Origin: Thermodesulfobacteriota bacterium
GTDB lineage: Bacteria; Desulfobacterota_D; UBA1144; Nemesobacterales; JAJCZQ01
DNA length: 64,000 bases
NCBI GenBank assembly: GCA_965215275.1
Contig: OZ244044.1
Coordinates: forward strand, 1,696,001-1,760,000
Reading direction: 5' to 3'
The position numbers and the translations under genes are program-made. Shown piece by piece: positions 27,235 through 52,648 of the stretch (position 1 is its first letter; each line of letters begins with the position of its first letter). Under the pieces are notes generated by a model that worked only from the letters and a program-made list of their open reading frames with translations, had not been told where the DNA came from and did no database searches.

Positions 27235-27981
27235 TTAGTTAATTTTGCCGTCAGAACCGGCAATACCCGTTTTACTCTTCAGCAGTTCAAGTTCATGATG
27301 GGTCAGATCTCTCCAGCTTCCACGTGCAAGACCGCCGAGCTTCAGGTTTCCGACCTGCACTCTTTTTAACCTTTCAACTTTCAGTCCGAAGTAACGTAAA
27401 TAGTTTTTCACCAGGTGCTTTCTTCCTTCGTGGAACGTTATTGTAAGCAGGAGTTTTCCGTTCCTTAGGCGTCTGACCTTCAGGGAATCGGGTTTTATGA
27501 ACCTTGCGTCCATGAACGCTCCATCCTCGACTTTTTTTATTGTTGTATCCTGTATTAATTCCCTGATGATCACCTGGTATGTCTTTTTAACGCCGTACCT
27601 TGGATGATGTATTCTGTTTGCAAGTTCCCCGTCGTTGGTCAGAAAGACAAGACCTTCAGAATCATAGTCCAGTCTGCCTGCCGGATATACTCTTTCCCGT
27701 ATATCCCTGATCAGGTCGGCTACCGTCGGTTTGCCGTCCTCGTTATTTATCAGCGTCGTGAGATACAGTCTCGGTTTATTCAGTATAATATATCTTTTCT
27801 TCTCCTGCCTTGCTTTCCTGTTGTTAACCAGTATCAGGTCCATGCCCGGATCTATGGACCTGCCCGGTTTTTTTACGATGTCGTCATTAACCCTGATCTT
27901 TCCACTGATTATAAGCTGATCGGCTTTTCTTCGGGAAGCTATCCCGCATTGCGATAAGTATTTATTTAACCTGACTTTCAT
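27235..27981 (-). CDS. RluB/RsuA-family pseudouridine synthase
   Basis: S4 domain RLNKYL...SRRKAD, GRLDYDSEGL. Confidence 0.92.
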   Translation of the reverse strand: MKVRLNKYLSQCGIASRRKADQLIISGKIRVNDDIVKKPGRSIDPGMDLILVNNRKARQEKKRYIILNKPRLYLTTLINNEDGKPTVADLIRDIRERVYPAGRLDYDSEGLVFLTNDGELANRIHHPRYGVKKTYQVIIRELIQDTTIKKVEDGAFMDARFIKPDSLKVRRLRNGKLLLTITFHEGRKHLVKNYLRYFGLKVERLKRVQVGNLKLGGLARGSWRDLTHHELELLKSKTGIAGSDGKIN

Positions 27982-28034
27982 AATTTATTAAATCCTTAAA
28001 GCAAAAAATTCAAGAATACTGTACAATTCTATAT

Positions 28035-29337
28035 GGGAACTATATACTTAAGTATCCAGTGGATACTAAAAGTTCTCTTTGACGAGTCATAGACCAGTTC
28101 CTGTCCCCAACCCCTCTGCAGTCTCCCCGTCCAATCACCCCTTTCCCTGAGGCTATAATTTGTTTTATTCCAGTTTCCAACTGGTTAAATGCAGCATTTA
28201 AGTCAGCATTAACTTCATAACCGCAAGATATACACTTAAATCTGGATTGCGATATTCTGTTGTCAGGAGATCTGTGTCCGCATTCAGAACAGGTTTGACT
28301 GGTATATGGAGCTGGAACTTCTTCAGTAGCATTACATTTATAATCCAGCATCCTTTTCATATCAAACCAGCCAGTAGCACGAATGTTCCTGTTCATCTTG
28401 CGAAAGTTCTTCCATTTCTTTCTGGCTGTCATCCCTTGTGTATTAAGTCTCTCAAGTATAGGAACATCATAAAGATCGGAGATCTTTCTTGTAACCTGAT
28501 GTCTCCAGTCCTTCTGTCTGTTTGCCAGCTTCCTGTGAAGTTTCTGCAACCTTTCCTTAGTAATTCTCCACCTGTTACTTCCCTCTTCCTGACGTGCAAG
28601 TTTCTTTTGGTATCTGCGTATCTTTGCTTCTGTAAGTTCATCATCAGATAACTTAAAAACCTGTCCGTCAGACAGCGTAACCTGTCTTGAATTCCTGTCC
28701 ATTGCTACAACTCTTACTTCTTTCTTTTCCTCTTTAGTTTCATCTATCTCATAGTTAAGGTACGCATACCACTTACCGCATTCCTTCTTGATCCTGCCAG
28801 AAAGGAACTTTCCATCAGGATAAGGATTCTTACCTGCCAACCTGAACCATCCAACCTGAACCATCCAACCTTTAAAATACGGACCCAGTTATTGTCTGAC
28901 AGTTTAGCTGACTGATAATTTACCGGAAACGAAGGAGTAGTTTTTAATTTACTCTTGAATTTAGGTTGTCCCGATTTTCCATTCCTGTATCTCTTACAGG
29001 CATTTGTAAGGTCCAGTAAATAATGCTGAAGTATGTAAGCAGATGCTTCTTTCAGAAAGTAGTTCTTTTCTTCTTTCTTAAACTCTCTTAAAAAATTCCC
29101 TAAACTCTCATGACTATAACCATCATTAAAATCGTTATCCCTTAAAATCCCTGTAAAGTGATTCCATACAAACCTGCAACAGCCAGCAGTAGAGGAAAGT
29201 TTATGAAACTTCTCCCTGTTGTTTGATCTCAACCTCTGCCTTACCGTTCTTATTGTCTTACCTTCTTTCATATTTGTAATTTTATCTTATTCCCTTGCTT
29301 TTTTTAAGTAGTTTGGATACTTAAGTATATAGTTCCC
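28035..29337 (-). mobile_element. Non-autonomous tnpB-carrying element with 24-bp terminal inverted repeats and an 8-bp target-site duplication
   Basis: gggaactatatacttaagtatcca at 28035-28058 and its exact reverse complement at 29314-29337; ttctatat at 28027-28034 and 29338-29345. Confidence 0.92.
28040..29271 (-). pseudogene. tnpB: tnpB split into two ORFs by a 14-bp tandem duplication
   Basis: N-half (CRFVWN, PKFKSK) and C-half (AMDRN, ILERL, TSQTCSECG, NADLNAA); ccaacctgaaccat x2 at 28837-28864. Confidence 0.9.
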
Positions 29338-29392
29338 TTCTATATTATATCACTCTGACTTGACAACCAGCGTTGAAATATGACAAGATAGT

Positions 29393-32175: not shown

Positions 32176-35100
32176 ATGTTTAAGATAATCCCCCCCCCCA
32201 TCTAAGTTAATCCTTTCTTTATTCTTATTTTTTCTGTGCATCATTACTATAGCTGCAAAAGGGCAGAGCAGCTTAGAAGAAACATTATCTGAATGCAGAG
32301 ATATCAGTGCAGACACGGAAGATCCGTTATACGGATGTCAGTGGCATCTGAAGAACACGGGGCAGCTTATTTATTCAGGAAAGAGAATAACATCAGGAGA
32401 AGATATAAACGTAGAGGGAGTGTGGAACGAAGACGTATACGGTACCGGAATTAACATAGCAATAGTAAGTGACGGTATCGACCTTTCACATGAGGACCTT
32501 TCTGCTAAGGTCCGTTCCGGACCGAACTATGATCTTTCTGAAAGAAATAATTCTGAAGAGAACAGTTCAGAAAAAGATAATTCAGAAAGAGATGATCTTT
32601 CATACGGTTCATCCTTTAGTGGAACACGAGCGGCAGGTGTAATAGCAGCAACTGGATATAACGGACTGGGAGTAAGAGGAACAGCACCTGGTGCGAGTAT
32701 ATACAGTTACGGGTTAACTGGTGATCTCAGGGAAGCGGACGCGGTGGTCCGTAATAAGGAAATAACGGCAGTATCGGTTAACGGCCGGGGATCTGAGGAC
32801 GGAGCTTTTTTTCAGGAGGCTTCATCTTCCTGGGAAGAAGGATTGGAACTTGGAATAAGTAAAGGGTTTTATGGTAAAGGAGTGTTTTACGTCCGGGGAG
32901 CAGGGGACGGGCATGAGAGCGGAGATCAGGCTAATTTTAATGAATATTCCAGCTATTACGGAGTAACGGCCGTTTGTTCAACTGACGGTTTTGGAAAAAA
33001 GAGTATTTTTTCAGAAGAGGGAGTAAATCTATGGGTATGTGCACCTGGTTCTGATATCGTGACCACGGATAACGGTGGTGGCTACACCGTAACTTCCGGA
33101 ACGTTCCTGTCAGCTTCACAGGTTGCAGGAGTGGCAGCACTGCTGAGAGAGATAAACGGGCAGCTGAGCTGGAGGGATATAAAGCTTATACTTGCGGGTT
33201 CAGCACGGCAGAACGATTTTTTTGACATGAGCTGGGAGACCGGAGCTGTTAAATACGGTTCTGACGTGGAAAGATATAAATATAGTCCCAGGTATGGTTT
33301 TGGCGTGGTAGACGCGGAAGCAGCCGCAGAACTTGCCAGAAACTGGAAAGGCGTTGGAGAGATGAGGACCGTTACAGCTTCTTCAGATAATGAACTGACG
33401 ATCCCTGATGGAGAAGAAAATGGAGATGGAGAAGCGGACGGGGTACTTACCTCCGGACTTGTGATACCGGACCTGGAGGAAATATTTACGGAATTCGTTG
33501 AGGTAGAACTTGTTTTTTCTCATGACCGCTTACAGGACCTCAATATACAGATAACCTCTCCTTCCGGGACAGTATCGGAACTTGTAAGGGAGTTTTCAGG
33601 GGAGGAAGAAGGCGCTGAGATCAGTTACCTGAGAAGAACACATCGTTTCGGGTCGGCTAAACACCTCGGAGAAGACCCTTCCGGAGAATGGACCCTTAAA
33701 ATATCCGATACTGCTTCCGGAGATGGAGAAGCAGAAAATTCAGAAAATACCGGGACCTTACACTCATGGAGCATCAGGGTCTACGGGCATGTTTTTTTAT
33801 CAGACCGTGGCAAGGAGATAACTACTAAAATAATAACCTTGCCACTTATTAGTGACAAGGTCTACGAACAAGGTAGACTAGTAAGTGAAGTGATGCCTGA
33901 AGCAACGGGAGGGACCGCTCCATATAATTATAGATTTGCTTTTACTTACCCTCTACCTAATGGATTGGAATTTGATCGTGACACCAGAGTGTTAAGTGGG
34001 GTACCAACTACTGTGGGTGTGACCAGTGTTGTATATGTGGCAACAGATTCAAGTCCCCAGGGTTTTTCCCGCACCCGTCAATTCCATATAACGATAACTG
34101 CTAACCCCGTGCCAACCTTCGGCAGTGAGACGGTAGAGGATCAGACGTGGGTTAATGGCAGCGCAGTAACGTTAACTCTGCCTCAGGCAACTGGAGGGAA
34201 TGGAACTTTAACTTACAGTATAGAACGAACTGGTAGCGGTGAAGAAGGTTTACCTGCTGGATTGGACTTTACCGCAAGCACCAGAGAGATAAGTGGAACG
34301 CTAAACGTTCGTGGACAATTACCTGTAACTGCTACTTATACCTACAAGGTAACTGATGATGACGGAGACACGGATACTCGCACCTTCTCTATTACTATAG
34401 AAGCTGATACAGAGCCGAGCTTTGGAGGTCAGTCAATTCCTGATCAGATATATATTCAAGGGACAACGGCAAACCTTCCAGTAACACTGCCTGCTGCAAC
34501 GGGAGGGAATGGGACTTTAACTTACAGTTTAGTTCCTAAACTGCCGGATGGACTGATATTTACCCCTGCTACCAGAGAGATAACAGGAACACCGACCACT
34601 GCAACGTCTGAGACTGATTACACGTATACGGTTGCTGATCTAGATGGAGATACGGATGAAATAGAGTTCAATATCACGGTAAGAACAGAACCGAACACAA
34701 TGCCGACCTTCGGCAGTGAGAGTATAGATAATAAGGTGTACATTAACGGCATTACAGCAGTAATGGAAACACTTCCTGAAGCAACGTCAGGGAATGCACC
34801 ATTAACTTACAGTTTAACTCCTGCCTTACCTGCCGGATTGGATTTTACCCCTGCTACACAAGTTATAAGCGGAACACCGACTACTGCAACGTCTGAGACT
34901 GATTACACGTATACAGTAACGGACGCAGATAATGATACAGATAAACTGGAGTTCAGCATAACAGTGGAAGAAGACAGCGAACCGGACTTCAGCGTGACGA
35001 CGATAGAAGATCAGGTGTACATGGGGAGATCAATAAGGTTGCCGGTAGCAACGGGAGGGAATGCACCGTTAGTATACAGTATAACGCCTCCCTTACCTCC

Positions 35101-35458
35101 TGGGTTGAGATTGGACAGAAACACCGGGGTAATAAGCGGGACGCCCGCGAGTGCGTCGTCTGAGAGGACCTACACGTACACGGTAACGGACAGGAATGGA
35201 GACATGAAAGAGTTGACCTTCAGGTTCAGTGCAGCGGCTCCGCCACCGACAGGTAGTGATCCAGGCGGAGGTGGAGGAGGATGTGCCGTATCAGATCAGA
35301 GCAGTGTTGCTTATGATATTCTCGGAGTAATGACATGTCTGATGCTTATACCCGTGTCGGTATTGATCAGAAGGAAAAGAAGATCTCAGATTAAGGACAC
35401 ATGTCACGATGGAGTAAGTGCTTGTGGGTGGCCTTTTGATATACTCTGCCGCCTTTAA
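32176..35458 (+). CDS. Kexin-like S8 pseudo-peptidase + P domain + putative Ig repeats + GGGGC/TM anchor, paralog 1 (frameshifted at poly-C)
   Basis: Signal peptide and DPLYGCQWHLKNTGQ in frame upstream of the ORF-track start 32420; LSWRD, YGFG, GEWTLKISD; repeated LPxGL/SGTP/YTVTD; GGGGGGC-TM-RRKRR. Confidence 0.85.
32190..32199 (+). repeat. Poly-C (C10) tract after the start codon; a second C9 tract lies at 32121-32129
   Basis: ATG TTT AAG ATA ATC CCC CCC CCC ATC TAA; C9 would restore the frame. Confidence 0.85.
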
Positions 35459-37154: not shown

Positions 37155-37185
37155 TTAACTACCACCACACCATATCATTACCAAA

Positions 37186-37450
37186 GGGAATTATATACTT
37201 TTTACTTGTTTTTGTTTACTAAATTATATAATCCCCAATATTTATTCCTATTTATATTAAAATTTCCGTAGTGAGAGCAATATCTATTATCACCATTTTA
37301 CCCTACTTCTGCTCCTCAAAAGCTTTCTTGCTGATTCCTCATCTGGAAACATTTTAAAGAATTTATAAAATCCGATTTTATAGTGTTGTGTTCTTTTATT
37401 CTCGTCAAATGATCCATTTGAAATCTTGGATAGTAAAGTATATAATTCCC
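37186..37450. mobile_element. MITE-like remnant bounded by IS1595-type inverted repeats
   Basis: gggaattatatacttt at 37186 and aaagtatataattccc ending 37450; extra internal end tatataatcccc ending 37236; no TSD seen. Confidence 0.6.
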
Positions 37451-37562
37451 TTTGTTTATGTATATAACTCCCATAAATAACTGGTAAATTGCCTGCATAA
37501 AATAAGGTATAAAATGGATAAAAACCAAACTATACTTATGGTGATGGGGAGCAATAAGACAG

Positions 37563-42173: not shown

Positions 42174-43100
42174 GAGGACTATATACTTAATTACCCAAAA
42201 AGATCTAACTACTTGTTATCATTAACTTTTAATTTTTGATTGTCTTTTAGTTTATTTTTAACTTTTCTTGCCTTGATAATAGCCTTTTGTTTAGAAAATA
42301 TAGCATCCACTACCTCTTCCATAGTAGCTTTTACAGGCTGTATTAATTTTGGTTTTCTTCCCATTTATCCTCTCTCTTTATATATCCGTTTATCTGATTA
42401 ATTCCGCATATTTAAGACGCTTACCTGAAAATCCTTTTATGACCTTTCCAATATGATCCATAGTAGCTAATGCTCTGTTATTGTGTCTGCCCGCATACTC
42501 ATCAACGTAGCGTTGCAAGTGTTTCTTGCTCATATAGTGATATGTTCCAACATATCCCCTCTTGAACATAGACCAGAAATTCTCTATCCCGTTGGTATGT
42601 GCTTGACCCCTCTGTAACTGTCCCTTCTATCATATTCTGTAGTTCTTCCTTCTTAACAGTTTCAGTTACCTTTGCTTTGATATTCTTATCTACCCTTGAC
42701 TTTATCCCTACTACTGATGATTTAGTCTTAATGCTTCTACCTTGTGTCCCTTTTATCTTCTTACTTGCGTGTTTGTTTTTTGATAATCCACCTACATAGG
42801 TCTCATCAACCTCTATTGGAGACAGTAAAGCATTATCCGACTGCTCTTCAAACGCTTTTCTTATCCTGTGCGCTAAAAACCAGGCTGTCTTCTGCGTTAC
42901 TTCTAAATCCCTTGATAGTTTCAAACTTGAAACTCCTTTCAGATTCGTGGTTAACAAGTAAACAGACATAAGCCAAATCTGGAGCGGTAATTTGCTTTGC
43001 TCTAATATCGTCCCCTGTCTTATACTAAACCTCTTTCTGCAATCCTTACATCTGTATGGCATTGCATGTTTAGATCTTACAGTCCTCACACTTCCACAGG
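42174..43100 (-). mobile_element. Decayed IS1595-family element (5'-truncated, internally deleted transposase)
   Basis: CKDCRKRFS, QKTAW, EVDETYVGG; frameshifted C-terminus HTNGIENFWS...KHLQRYVDEY...RHN ending 42390; terminal repeat gaggactatatacttaattaccca at 42174. Confidence 0.9.
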
Positions 43101-46844: not shown

Positions 46845-46904
46845 ATATTAGTGTTACATTAGAGAATTATTAAGAAGAGTTGACAGAAAGGACTTGACAA
46901 ACAC

Positions 46905-47187
46905 CATTATACAACAAGAACCTGTTCTGAATGTGTAAAGGTAAATGCAAAACTGCCACTGTCTCAGAGAGTATTTAACTGTATGTATTGCGGTTATTCA
47001 GAAGACAGAGATATAAACGCAGGTAAAAATATCAATACTCTTAATGAAGGAGACTTCATATCGGGTGGAAATAAGGTAGAAATACTCCCGATGAGTGCTA
47101 AGAGTATTAAATCAAAGAAGATCGGGGATAGAGGAGTTCTGCCATCAGAACAGTATAGGTAGTTTTTAACTTTCCTTTATAAATCCC
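46905..47187 (+). pseudogene. tnpB: tnpB 3' remnant with putative omega-RNA and element end (not in the ORF track)
   Basis: Hand translation HYTTRTCSEC...LSQRVFNCMYCGYSEDRDINAGKNI, stop at 47160-47162; ends tttataaatccc. Confidence 0.85.
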
Positions 47188-48403: not shown

Positions 48404-48614
48404 TGCTAACTTTTTTGGAAATTATTCCTACATCCTGAATATCATTATCATTGCAAGAAAGAGAAAGAAACTCATACTTGACATTTATTCATAATACGAA
48501 GTAAAATATTAATGTTATGAAAAGTTCAAATGTAAAAACAAAAACGCATAGTTCCATTACCCCCCCCCGTGTATACCTGAACTTTCAGCCTGGTATAAGT
48601 ATTTTGTAAGAACA

Positions 48615-51600
48615 ATGTTTAAGATAATCCCCCCCCCCATCTAAGTCATTACTAACTTTAGTCTTTATTCTTCTGTTTATACTGGTAATAGCTGCAAAAG
48701 GGCAGAGCAGCCTGGAAGAAACATTATCTGAATGCAGAGGCATCAGTGCAGACACGGAAGATCCGTTATACGGATGTCAGTGGCATCTGAAGAACACGGG
48801 GCAGTTAAGTTTTTCCGGAAATAGAATAACTGCAGGAGAAGATATAAACATAGAGGGGGTGTGGAACGAAGACGTATACGGTACCGGAATTAACGTAGCA
48901 ATAGTAAGTGACGGTATCGACCTTTCACATGAGGACCTTTCTGCAAACGTCCGTTCCGGACCGAACTATGATCTTTCTGACAGTTCATCCTTTAGTGGGA
49001 CAAGAGCGGCAGGAGTAACAGCAGCAACTGGATATAACGGACTGGGAGTAAGAGGAACAGCACCTGGTGCGAGTATATACAGTTACAGGTTATCCGGTGA
49101 TATCAGTGAAGCGGACGCGGTGGTCCGTAATAAGGAAATAACAGCAGTATCGGTTAACGGCCGGGGATCTGAGGACGGAGCTTTTTTTCAGGAGGCTTCA
49201 TCTTCCTGGGAAGAAGGAGTGGAACTTGGTATAAAGCAAGGGTTTTACGGTAAAGGGGTGTTTTACGTCCGGGGAGTAGGGGACGGGCATGAAAGAGGAG
49301 ATCAGGCTAATTTTAATGAATATTCCAGCTATTACGGAGTAACAGCCGTCTGTTCAACGGACGGCTTTGGAAAGAAGAGTATTTTTTCAGAAGAGGGAGT
49401 AAATCTGTGGGTATGTGCACCTGGTTCTGATATTGTAACTACTGATAACAAAAACGATTACGTTGTAACTTCCGGAACATTTCTATCAGCTTCACAGGTT
49501 GGAGGAGTGGCAGCACTGCTGAGAGAGATAAACGGGAATCTGAGCTGGAGGGATATAAAGCTTATACTTGCGGGTTCAGCACGGCAGAACGATTTTTTTG
49601 ATATGAGCTGGGAGACTGGAGCTGTTAAATACGGTTCTGATACGGAAAGATATAATTCTAATCCTAAGTATGGTTTTGGCGTGGTAGACGCAGAAGCAGC
49701 TGCAGAACTTGCAAAAAGCTGGAAAGGCGTTGGAGAGATGAGGACCATTACAGCTTCTTCAGATAATGAACTGACAATTCCTGATGGAGAAGGAGAAGCA
49801 GACGGGGTCCTTGTTTCCAGACTTATGATCCCGGACCTGGAGGAAATATTTACGGAATTCGTTGAGGTAGAACTTGTTTTCTCTCATGACCGCTTACAGG
49901 ACCTTGATATAAAAATAACCTCTCCTTCCGGGACAGTTTCGGAACTTGTGCGGGAGGTTGCCGGGGAGTCTGTAAGGGGATCTTCGGATGAAGAAAAAAA
50001 CTGCGTCAGTTACCAGAGAAGAACACATCGTTTCGGGTCGGCTAAACACCTCGGAGAAGACCCTTCCGGAGAATGGGTCCTTAAGATCTCCGATACTGCT
50101 TCCGGAGATGAAGAAGATGAAAAAAACACTTTTACCTTACACTCCTGGAGCATTAAGGTATACGGGCATTTTTATCAGGGACCTGGCAGTGAGATAAGTG
50201 CTAAACATCATGATTTCAGTTTTGGTGGTGCGACAATTCAAGATCAGGAGTATCAAATAGGAGTTCAGATAACACCATTAGAACTGCCTAGAGGAACTGG
50301 TGGGGGTGGTGGAAGTAGATACAGGTTAGAACCTAATCTGCCTTCTGGATTGAGGCGTATCATCGACACAATAAGTGGCACACCAAATACTCTGATGTCT
50401 GAGACTACTTATACATGGACTGGTACAGGTCTTAATGGAGATAGTGAAAGTATAACGTTCACCATTACGGTGGTAACAGAACTTAACTCAGAACCAACCT
50501 TCTCAGGAGCAACTGTCCCAGAGCAGATATGGACGGAAGGGGTAAGGATACCAACGTTACGTTTTCCTAATGCAACTGGAGGTAACGGAACTTTAACATA
50601 CTTTTTAAGTCCTGCGCAGCCAGTTGGTATCAGCAGACAGGACAACAGGTTATTCGGAACACCTACGGAACCTCAAAGAAGATCTCTTTATACATGGACA
50701 GTCAGAGACAAAGATAATGATGAAGATATTATTGAGTTCTATATTACTGTAAGAGAGAACGTCCCTACCTTCGGAGGTCAGACCATACCTCAGCAGAATT
50801 ATATAGTAGGCAGAACAATACAAAGATTAGTATTTCCTCGTGCAACGGGAGGGAATGGAACTTTAAATTACAGTTTAACTAATAGTATAGGTGATCCAAT
50901 TAAAATTAATGGATTGGATTATAACGAAAACACCAGAACGTTAAGTGGAACGCTCAACGTTTCTCCAAGTGGATTACCTATAACTCAAACTTATACTTAC
51001 AAGGTAACTGACTCTGACTCAGATGATGACGGTGATTCTGACAGTATTACTTTCTCTATTACTATAACGGCGGTCCTGGCCTTTACCCGGCCTGTATTTA
51101 GTCTTTATACGTTTGTAGCGGGTAATTTCCACTCCACAACTCTGCCAGAGGCAACGGGAGGGAAAACTCCCTTAACTTACAGTTTAACACCTGCATTATT
51201 TGATGGATTGGAATTTAATCCTGCTACCAGAGTGTTAAGCGGAACACCAACTGATGCAACAAAGCCTAGGAAGACTTATACATATACCGTTACTGACACA
51301 GATGGAATTACGAAAGAGCAGACGTTTGATGCTCAGGTAAGAGCAAATATTACTAACATAACGGTAGTAGATAAGGTATATAAGGTCGGTACAGCAGTAA
51401 CGGACACACTGCCTATTGCAGCGGGAGATGGTGGTGGAATATTAACTTACAGTTTAACTCCTTCTTTACCTTCTGGACTGAGTTTTAACAATAACACCCG
51501 AGAGATAACTGGAACGCCAGATACTGCAACTTCCAGAATAACTTACACTTATAGAGTAACTGACACAGTGGGAGATACTGCTCCTTTAACCTTCAATATC

Positions 51601-52383
51601 ACGGTAGTAAGAGCAGAACCAGACACGGAACCAACCTTCGGGAGTGAAACTATAGATAATAAGGTGTATATAAACGGAGAAGCAGTAAATGAAACACTGC
51701 CTGAAGCAATGGGAGGGAATGCTCCATTAACTTACAGTTTAACTAATAGTGTAGGTAATCCAATTAACATTCGTGGATTAAGTTTTAACAGAAACACCAG
51801 AACGTTAAGTGGAACATCCACCGTCAGTGTACATCTACTTCCTACAACTAAGACATATACATATAAAGTAACAGACAATGATGGAGATACAGCAGAGATA
51901 ACGTTCAGGATAACAATAGAAGAAGACAGCGAACCGGACTTCAGCGGTACAACAATACCTGATCGGGTGTACACGGGGAGAACAATAACGCTGCCGGAGG
52001 CAACGGGAGGAAATTTACCAGTTACTTACAGTATAACACCTGATCTGCCAGCTGGATTGAGATTTAACGAAGTAACGCGGGAAATAAGTGGGACACCCAG
52101 GAGTGCATCATCTGCTGCTTCTTACACGTATACGGCAACGGACAGGAATGGAAATACGGATGAGGTGAGTTTCATGCTCAGTGTAGAGGTTCCTTCTACT
52201 CCACCAACACCACCACGAGGACCAAGAACATCAGGTACTGATTCAGGCGGAGGTGGAGGAGGATGTGCTGTATCAGAGCAGAGCAGCGTTGCTTCTGATA
52301 TTCTCGGAGTAATGGCATGTCTGATGCTTATACCTGTATCTATAGTGATCAGAAGGAAGGGAAGGTCTCAGATAAAGATGTAG
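48615..52383 (+). CDS. Kexin-like S8 pseudo-peptidase + P domain + putative Ig repeats + GGGGC/TM anchor, paralog 2 (frameshifted at poly-C 48629-48638)
   Basis: Same architecture and near-identical 5' region as paralog 1; ORF-track start 48859. Confidence 0.85.
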
Positions 52384-52648
52384 CAATGAGGTCCCTTTCA
52401 AAGGCGTTGAACTGACTGAAATCTTTCCCATCAGAATATCTGCTGGCTGCTTACGGGAGAAAAAGCGGTATCTTTCTGTTAAAATCCTCTTTTCTTTTGA
52501 TGTTAAATGTCCTTATTACATAAGGGTCTAACTACAAGGTTTTTCACTCGGTACGAATATAATCTTGTTAAAAATGTCTTTTTTATTCATTTAGCATAGT
52601 TACACATATTATTCCCCATCCTTTTGCGTCTGATCTTCAATTTTCATC

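Follow-up and report, generated by a model that had tools for sequence, protein, structure and literature searches.

The tnpB genes described here are bounded by inverted terminal repeats (TIRs) of the IS1595 type, and the base directly 5' of the left target-site duplication (TSD), termed -9 with elements oriented by tnpB, is a purine in 74/75 of those elements whose duplications differ by at most one mismatch; at the mirror position, the same base at the right, a purine occurs in 29/75. If the predicted guide RNA begins with the duplication, then -9 falls in the TAM position. We consider it probable that these are non-autonomous elements, comprising tnpB and a guide RNA between IS1595-type ends, which are mobilized in trans and protect their site by cutting the empty allele. 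The association of TnpB with DDE transposases is already published; the purine motif 5' of the left duplication is new here.

The window, a stretch of 64,000 nucleotides, belongs to a genome (G000) of 1.99 Mb in one contig with 99.87% completeness, and contains the element detailed in Table 1. The original prediction had described perfect 24-bp TIRs, an exact 8-bp TSD, tnpB as the sole cargo and a tnpB stop codon within a TIR. All of these features are present: only tnpB domains are found between the TIRs by Pfam, and the stop codon lies at 28040-28042 on the minus strand. The resemblance it noted between this TIR and the IS1595 end at 42174 was also recovered (20/24 positions equal), and this IS1595 copy is truncated, its left end was not found, and it is not a likely source of transposase. 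What had been missed is that the window tnpB is frameshifted, being split into ORFs of 175 and 274 aa by a 14-bp duplication. This duplication is missing from both sister copies of the element (G000:202418-203706 and 714634-715929), which possess intact tnpB genes and exact TSDs of their own, and with which the window element shares 1245/1303 and 1270/1310 aligned bases. Runs X1 and X3 contain the filled site, and their contig lacks the 14-bp duplication but merges element copies; the contig of run X5 without the duplication bears the flank of another copy. With its own tnpB disrupted, the window element would depend on both intact sister copies to supply protein for its RNA. The TnpB domains match the TnpB family NF040570, the closest natural solved structural relative is 8bf8/8exa, and the catalytic residues are D187, E269, and D352 in the numbering of an intact sister copy. 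This RuvC D-E-D triad is complete in 49/49 TnpB proteins compared.

Table 1. Features of the tnpB element and of the related IS1595 remnant, in window positions.
Feature	Position	Strand	Remark
tnpB element, including both 8-bp duplications	28027..29345		Element proper 1303 bp
Right-end TIR, 24 bp	28035..28058	-	Contains the tnpB stop codon; the UUCCC at its end would form the 3' strand of the predicted pseudoknot
Left-end TIR, 24 bp	29314..29337	-	
TSD copy, right end (tnpB 3' side), TTCTATAT	28027..28034	+	
TSD copy, left end, TTCTATAT	29338..29345	+	
tnpB 3' part, 274-aa ORF, RuvC D-E-D and zinc finger	28040..28864	-	Pfam PF01385, PF07282
tnpB 5' part, 175-aa ORF, HTH_OrfB_IS605	28744..29271	-	Pfam match
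14-bp tandem duplication shifting the tnpB frame	28837..28864	.	
Hairpin of the inner half of the right TIR and the sequence just upstream	28051..28067	-	Predicted omegaRNA stem
Hairpin with loop GGGAA (28143-28147)	28137..28153	-	Predicted pseudoknot with the last five bases of the element
Predicted omegaRNA guide region: 8-bp duplication, then rluB upstream sequence	28015..28034	-	Suggested by TAM position and pseudoknot
Candidate TAM (TA), directly 5' of the left duplication	29346..29347	-	TA in 3/3 family-A copies
Truncated IS1595 remnant, related right end (20/24)	42174..43089	-	

Full-length tnpB loci number 19 in this genome and fall into several subfamilies (A to E here), with fragments in addition; IS1595-type inverted repeats bound 19/19 of them. 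The 8-bp TSD is exact in 9/19, differs by at most one mismatch in 12/19, and by two or more in 7/19. Since exact matches occur in 9/19 true end pairs and in 0/342 cross pairs, these duplications are not chance matches. About 190 TIR-like ends are found in the genome, together with 28 matches to the IS1595 transposase family, many of them intact and with the same type of end as the tnpB elements. An intact NF033547 element (G000:1516018-1519071) provides the best match, its left-end TIR agreeing with that of the window element at 23/24 positions. IS200/IS605 and IS607 elements have no TIR and no TSD, employ a Y1 or serine TnpA, and end in hairpins or GG. The window element has both TIR and TSD, lacks a linked Y1 transposase or resolvase, and thus falls outside these groups; it encodes no IS1595 DDE transposase either. 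Across the 99.9% complete genome there was no serine resolvase match, and the single Y1 transposase match is not near any tnpB. The original proposal of a non-autonomous tnpB transposon moved in trans by IS1595 therefore stands as regards its ends, the empty allele described below and an intact transposase element with a near-identical TIR; the movement in trans itself we infer. The first 779 positions of the window hold the right part of a second TIR-bound tnpB element (family B, G000:1695227-1696779), whose two 8-bp flanks do not match. Window positions 46862-47187 contain a 326-bp family-C element with an internal deletion that has kept both ends and the predicted omegaRNA region; it has an exact TSD, TTACATTA, with TG at -10/-9, and could be a guide-RNA MITE that stands alone. 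The genome has comparable remnants at G000:1953215-1953763, near 1790310-1790440, and near 1545315.

An empty allele of the rluB-cofG site with a single target copy, which the original prediction had proposed to look for, is found in runs X7 and X8 of one study. One contig in each joins 28029 directly to 29341, skipping 1311 bases, which corresponds to the 1303-bp element and one 8-bp copy. Of the 8 letters only 5 were given as compatible with either side of this joint, so a one-base difference in the empty target is possible. In these runs the element itself is present at ~4x the depth of the flanks and occurs with other flanks. In G002 and G003, two genomes of the same family, rluB and cofG are adjacent and the element is absent.

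The elements are not confined to this genome. Like elements occur in genomes of another family within the same order, in MAGs whose titles name Pseudomonadales, Arenicellales, Gammaproteobacteria, Acidimicrobiia, or Thermodesulfobacteriota, and on metagenome contigs. After duplicate removal, 104 tnpB elements have paired TIRs, with TSDs exact in 57 and differing by at most one mismatch in 75; 55 further tnpB loci are without a TIR pair, including truncated contigs, degenerate ends and TIR-less distant relatives. A phylum-wide search with the TIR pattern was used only for choosing genomes, and a loose pattern scan of the genome collection returned 120 loci, 7 of them with tnpB and a candidate right end. 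These data establish that TIR-bound tnpB elements are real and widespread in a set of related MAGs. Among 170 tnpB loci from other genomes, no element encodes tnpB together with an IS1595 transposase; one locus has a 67-aa fragment of such a transposase nearby, outside the element. Two genomes are rich in elements without an intact IS1595 transposase match, G043 having 15 PF07282 matches and no transposase match and G042 only broken ones, which is a point against the reading preferred here. One TIR-bound tnpB (L393:901-6464, from G017) is split by ~4.3 kb of nested insertion sequences, with IS21-like and IS110-like ORFs identified by eye, and keeps its TSD and TG at -10/-9 despite them.

The question of whether TIR-flanked TnpBs cluster together was addressed with a FastTree phylogeny of 81 proteins (138 before redundancy reduction) over 385 columns, and the answer is that they do not. 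They form two clades (support 0.995 and 1.0) with TIR-less TnpBs between them, many of which have IS605-type ends. A single origin was rejected when the TIR-bound proteins were constrained to one clade (delta logL 46, AU p 0.001, from 33 picked rows with a fast search and 2000 replicates, fewer than the program advises). The tree suggests at least two captures of TnpB by IS1595 ends, or one capture and one replacement. A scan of the window for the exact pattern of the clade I tail gave no match, and no close plasmid relatives of these TnpBs were found, those among the top-ranked matches being ~30% identical.

The last bases of the element are predicted to close a pseudoknot of the guide RNA. 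A complement of at least six bases to the element end lies upstream in 51/88 unique ends, as opposed to 5.6% in shuffles. Pairs 1-4 of this pseudoknot are formed at the homologous position in 47-48/48 ends of clade I and 36-40/40 of clade II, and the fifth pair is C-G instead of A-U, with both strands altered, in 7 sequences of clade I and 8 of clade II, from three lineages, a partial covariation in support of the fold; it is broken in 8/48 and 5/40 ends. A stem analogous to the hairpin at 28051-28067, composed of other bases, is seen in relatives by eye. Rfam gave no match in the five loci tested, and a promoter scan stayed at chance level (5 vs 4.1). No RNA data set was found to contain the locus, a result that bears in neither direction on expression. 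Pseudoknots are a known feature of TnpB RNAs, and the RNA scaffolds of IS200/IS605 are described as stopping at the transposon boundary (PMC10711439). This precedent and the pseudoknot at the element end suggest that the scaffold ends at the terminal CCC and that the guide begins with the TSD. The longest match of a guide to the left TIR is 11 bases, with ~0.3 cases of 12 expected by estimate, and in G000 no guide has a second site (at most one mismatch) beside its candidate TAM.

Constraint is seen at -9 and not at the mirror position. Its bases in the 75 elements are G 56, A 18, T 1, and C 0, counted over genomes that are kin with each row a separate insertion site. Members of G-type groups have G in 56/57; a strict set with exact TSDs and unshifted GGG ends has a purine in 46/46, and elements with degraded TSDs in 26/28. 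A held-out set of ten further genomes comprised 37 loci (eight from a duplicate genome dropped), yielding 26 pairs, 17 with TSDs; these have a purine at -9 in 17/17 and at the mirror in 8/17, with G in 11/11 clade I members. Within G000, TR occupies -10/-9 in 13/19 left ends vs 3/19 right ends and 32/132 other ends. The motif varies between groups, with TA in 3/3 of family A (a motif that rests on these three copies), TG in 6/7 of family C and in 8/8 of the TYKC group, G alone in 15/15 of G042 and 7/7 of G043, and purine only in the two groups nearest family A (TA 2, TG 2, AG, GG, AA). As a control, we collected 37 transposase-coding IS1595 pairs with TSDs from longer regions, two of which are nested and share an end with another pair. 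Their -9 bases are T11 A10 C9 G7, thus a purine in 17/37, and G is found on either side in only 10/37. The transposase element of L333 shares its 24-bp TIR with tnpB elements in that genome and carries T at -9.

These observations can be joined into a mechanism. An IS1595 DDE transposase acting in trans would insert the element at AT-rich 8-mers and duplicate them, the duplication being evidenced by the TSDs and the empty allele. The omegaRNA scaffold would stop with the final base of the right TIR, and the guide would therefore read the 8-bp duplication and then the right flank, with a TAM of one or two bases placed immediately 5' of the left duplication: TA in family A and G, often TG, elsewhere. 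If so, the predicted target is the site before insertion or after precise excision, since the motif then stands in the TAM position. An allele that was never occupied or was precisely excised, with TAM, one target copy and flank, would be cut by TnpB and repaired from a filled copy, resulting in recombinational restoration or homing. Cutting would spare the filled allele, where the full match follows CCC and the match on the TAM side covers only 8-11 bases. Copies inserted without a TAM would be lost, and because the controls indicate that the transposase does not choose the TAM, the one-sided motif would represent a selective filter; loss of unprotected copies is likely the simplest source of the bias. 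It had originally been argued that the logic of cutting the empty site would have to differ in an element of this kind. That argument is not supported, as a one-sided, clade-specific motif occupies the place that a TAM would need if the guide starts with the duplication, and the usual TnpB logic probably applies, shifted by 8 bp. A circle joined through the 8-bp repeat would regenerate the single target, and so would excision that is precise between direct repeats, an established route. A circle joined through the 8-bp repeat is described for the IS1595 family (PMC12561309), retention of donor sites by TnpB for IS605 (10.1101/2023.03.14.532601), and gene drive in plasmids offers a precedent for homing (10.1101/2025.02.20.638934).

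The bias might instead originate with the transposase. Some IS1595 transposases could read a purine that lies beyond the target at the left end; TnpB would then be matched to this preference, much as TnpA and TnpB correspond in IS605, or else ride as passive cargo. A partial bias of the transposase is conceivable, since 3/6 controls with TYKC-type TIRs have G at -9, and the left end of the transposase element whose TIR agrees best with family A is likewise next to TA; IS1595 elements here also carry R-M cargo, as passive carriage would have it. The spread of bases across the 37 controls argues against this origin, as do the nine controls with C at -9, a base seen in 0/92 tnpB elements with intact TSDs (75 and 17 held-out), and the preservation of the TnpB catalytic triad and pseudoknot, and we regard it as unlikely. 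The bias could also arise at insertion if a TnpB-RNA complex at the element end read the TAM and positioned the IS1595 transposase eight bases away. Such target choice would account for the near-absolute purine (91/92), which extends to 15/15 even among the closely similar copies of G042. It would, however, have to couple two proteins that are never co-encoded in 170 tnpB loci, and to arise in two separate TnpB clades, and the intact nuclease sites favor cutting over steering; we judge it distinctly unlikely. The composite of at least two IS1595 captures, a minimal TAM of one or two bases outside the TSD, and steering by TnpB-RNA of a borrowed, never co-encoded DDE transposase likewise has little probability.

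A further alternative is that an IS605-type tnpB element landed in a pre-existing IS1595 MITE, whose ends would then be irrelevant to its biology. The nearest TIR-less relatives do have a typical IS605-type end, GTAGTTCAC, but no such end is seen within the TIR-bound elements, the boundaries are equal at >100 different sites, and the TIR itself completes the predicted RNA fold. This reading is already contradicted by these observations and is very improbable.

The elements share features with several known systems. Siguier et al. reportedly introduced, in 2009, the concept of IS1595-family transporter IS (tIS) and non-autonomous cassettes (MIC). The TIRs of ~24 bp, AT-rich 8-bp TSDs and passenger genes are as seen here; unlike in tIS/MIC, the passenger is an RNA-guided nuclease, the predicted RNA uses the TIR, and a one-sided motif would filter the sites. 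Altae-Tran et al. described six DDE-associated TnpB branches with inverted repeats, DDE-1 to DDE-6, and solo TnpB copies whose ends resemble those of elements with a transposase and which were taken to be mobile in trans (Altae-Tran et al. 2023, PMC10691335). Inverted terminal repeats around TnpB and solo copies with presumed movement in trans are thus common to both, but those branches are defined by a neighboring DDE gene, and none is co-encoded in the elements with IS1595 ends. One line of their SI, on the end of DDE-5, mentions a "TA motif 8bp upstream"; IS1595 is absent from the main text and, in the SI, present only in a profile list (PMC10691335). DDE-5 is among the plasmid-enriched branches with rearranged catalytic sites, as opposed to the canonical D-E-D here, a comparison drawn from the text description in which overlap between the two is possible (PMC10691335). 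TnpB partners named in a recent review include ISL2, IS630, and IS1031 (PMC13565253). In the literature searched, which excludes most subscription journals, queries for TnpB with IS1595 or ISXO2, for IscB with IS1595, and for TnpB with DDE-5 found no IS1595 pairing, and no report of an offset TAM as a mechanism was found.

Compared with IS200/IS605 and IS1341 (ISDra2, ISGst), the protein family is the same, and a scaffold ending at the element boundary and cutting of the empty site are likewise predicted, but TIRs, 8-bp TSDs and the lack of TnpA replace hairpin ends and TnpA. The transposase and nuclease of IS605 share the TAM (10.1101/2023.03.14.532601), whereas here the transposase apparently ignores a TAM eight bases from the end. 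Fanzor1 and Fanzor2* are also nucleases captured by a DDE transposon, with the TIR described as part of the RNA scaffold (PMC10711439), as predicted here. In Fanzor the scaffold takes in the 3' TSD, and the 5' TSD contributes to the TAM (PMC10711439, PMC13565253); in the IS1595-type elements the TSD would instead form the first eight guide bases, with the TAM outside it and the pseudoknot kept. This arrangement would be a third way of fitting a guide RNA to transposon ends, beside IS605 and Fanzor, in which the duplication becomes the seed.

According to a 2026 review, DDE transposons stand to gain little from TnpB, whose bacterial forms are perhaps too inflexible for them (PMC13565253, section 6.2). 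Here, ~90 independent insertions serve as a natural readout, in which IS1595 ignores the flanking base and TnpB carriers are almost never without the motif. This suggests that the nuclease likely retains the element through empty-site cutting, a role credited mainly to other transposon types, and the benefit of TnpB to a DDE element becomes directly testable. Specialists would be surprised by a predicted TAM that is minimal, offset from the end and apparently not chosen by the transposase. TAMs this short are to be expected, because a longer one would leave most random insertions unprotected; the predicted compact nucleases (~400 aa) with TAMs of G, TG, or TA are candidates for editing tools.

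Other contents of the IS1595 elements and of the window were also observed. Methyltransferase and nuclease genes that appear R-M-like by eye occur in transposase-coding IS1595 elements (G000:1002026-1005187, G000:1516018-1519071, L363:5413-10662, L381:5472-8580), and would on this inspection be another self-maintaining cargo. Within window positions 37176-37460, the IS1595-type ends at 37236 and 37450 point the same way and are accompanied by a 26-bp inverted repeat. These ends adjoin a region of methyltransferase and histidine-kinase-like ATPase genes that stops at the IS1595 end at 42174, and this may be what is left of a cargo element. Two subtilase-like paralogs with Ig-like repeats lie at 32420-35458 and about 48500-52400 and share 88-93% identity in parts. 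The tnpB element sits ~45 bp upstream of rluB in the same direction (region 27235-28034), and the two genes after rluB, a thymidylate-kinase-like and a holB-like ORF by eye, are also co-directional; read-through from the element may therefore drive all three. On the cofG side of the element lies a TTGACA-containing motif that is conserved in G002 and G003.
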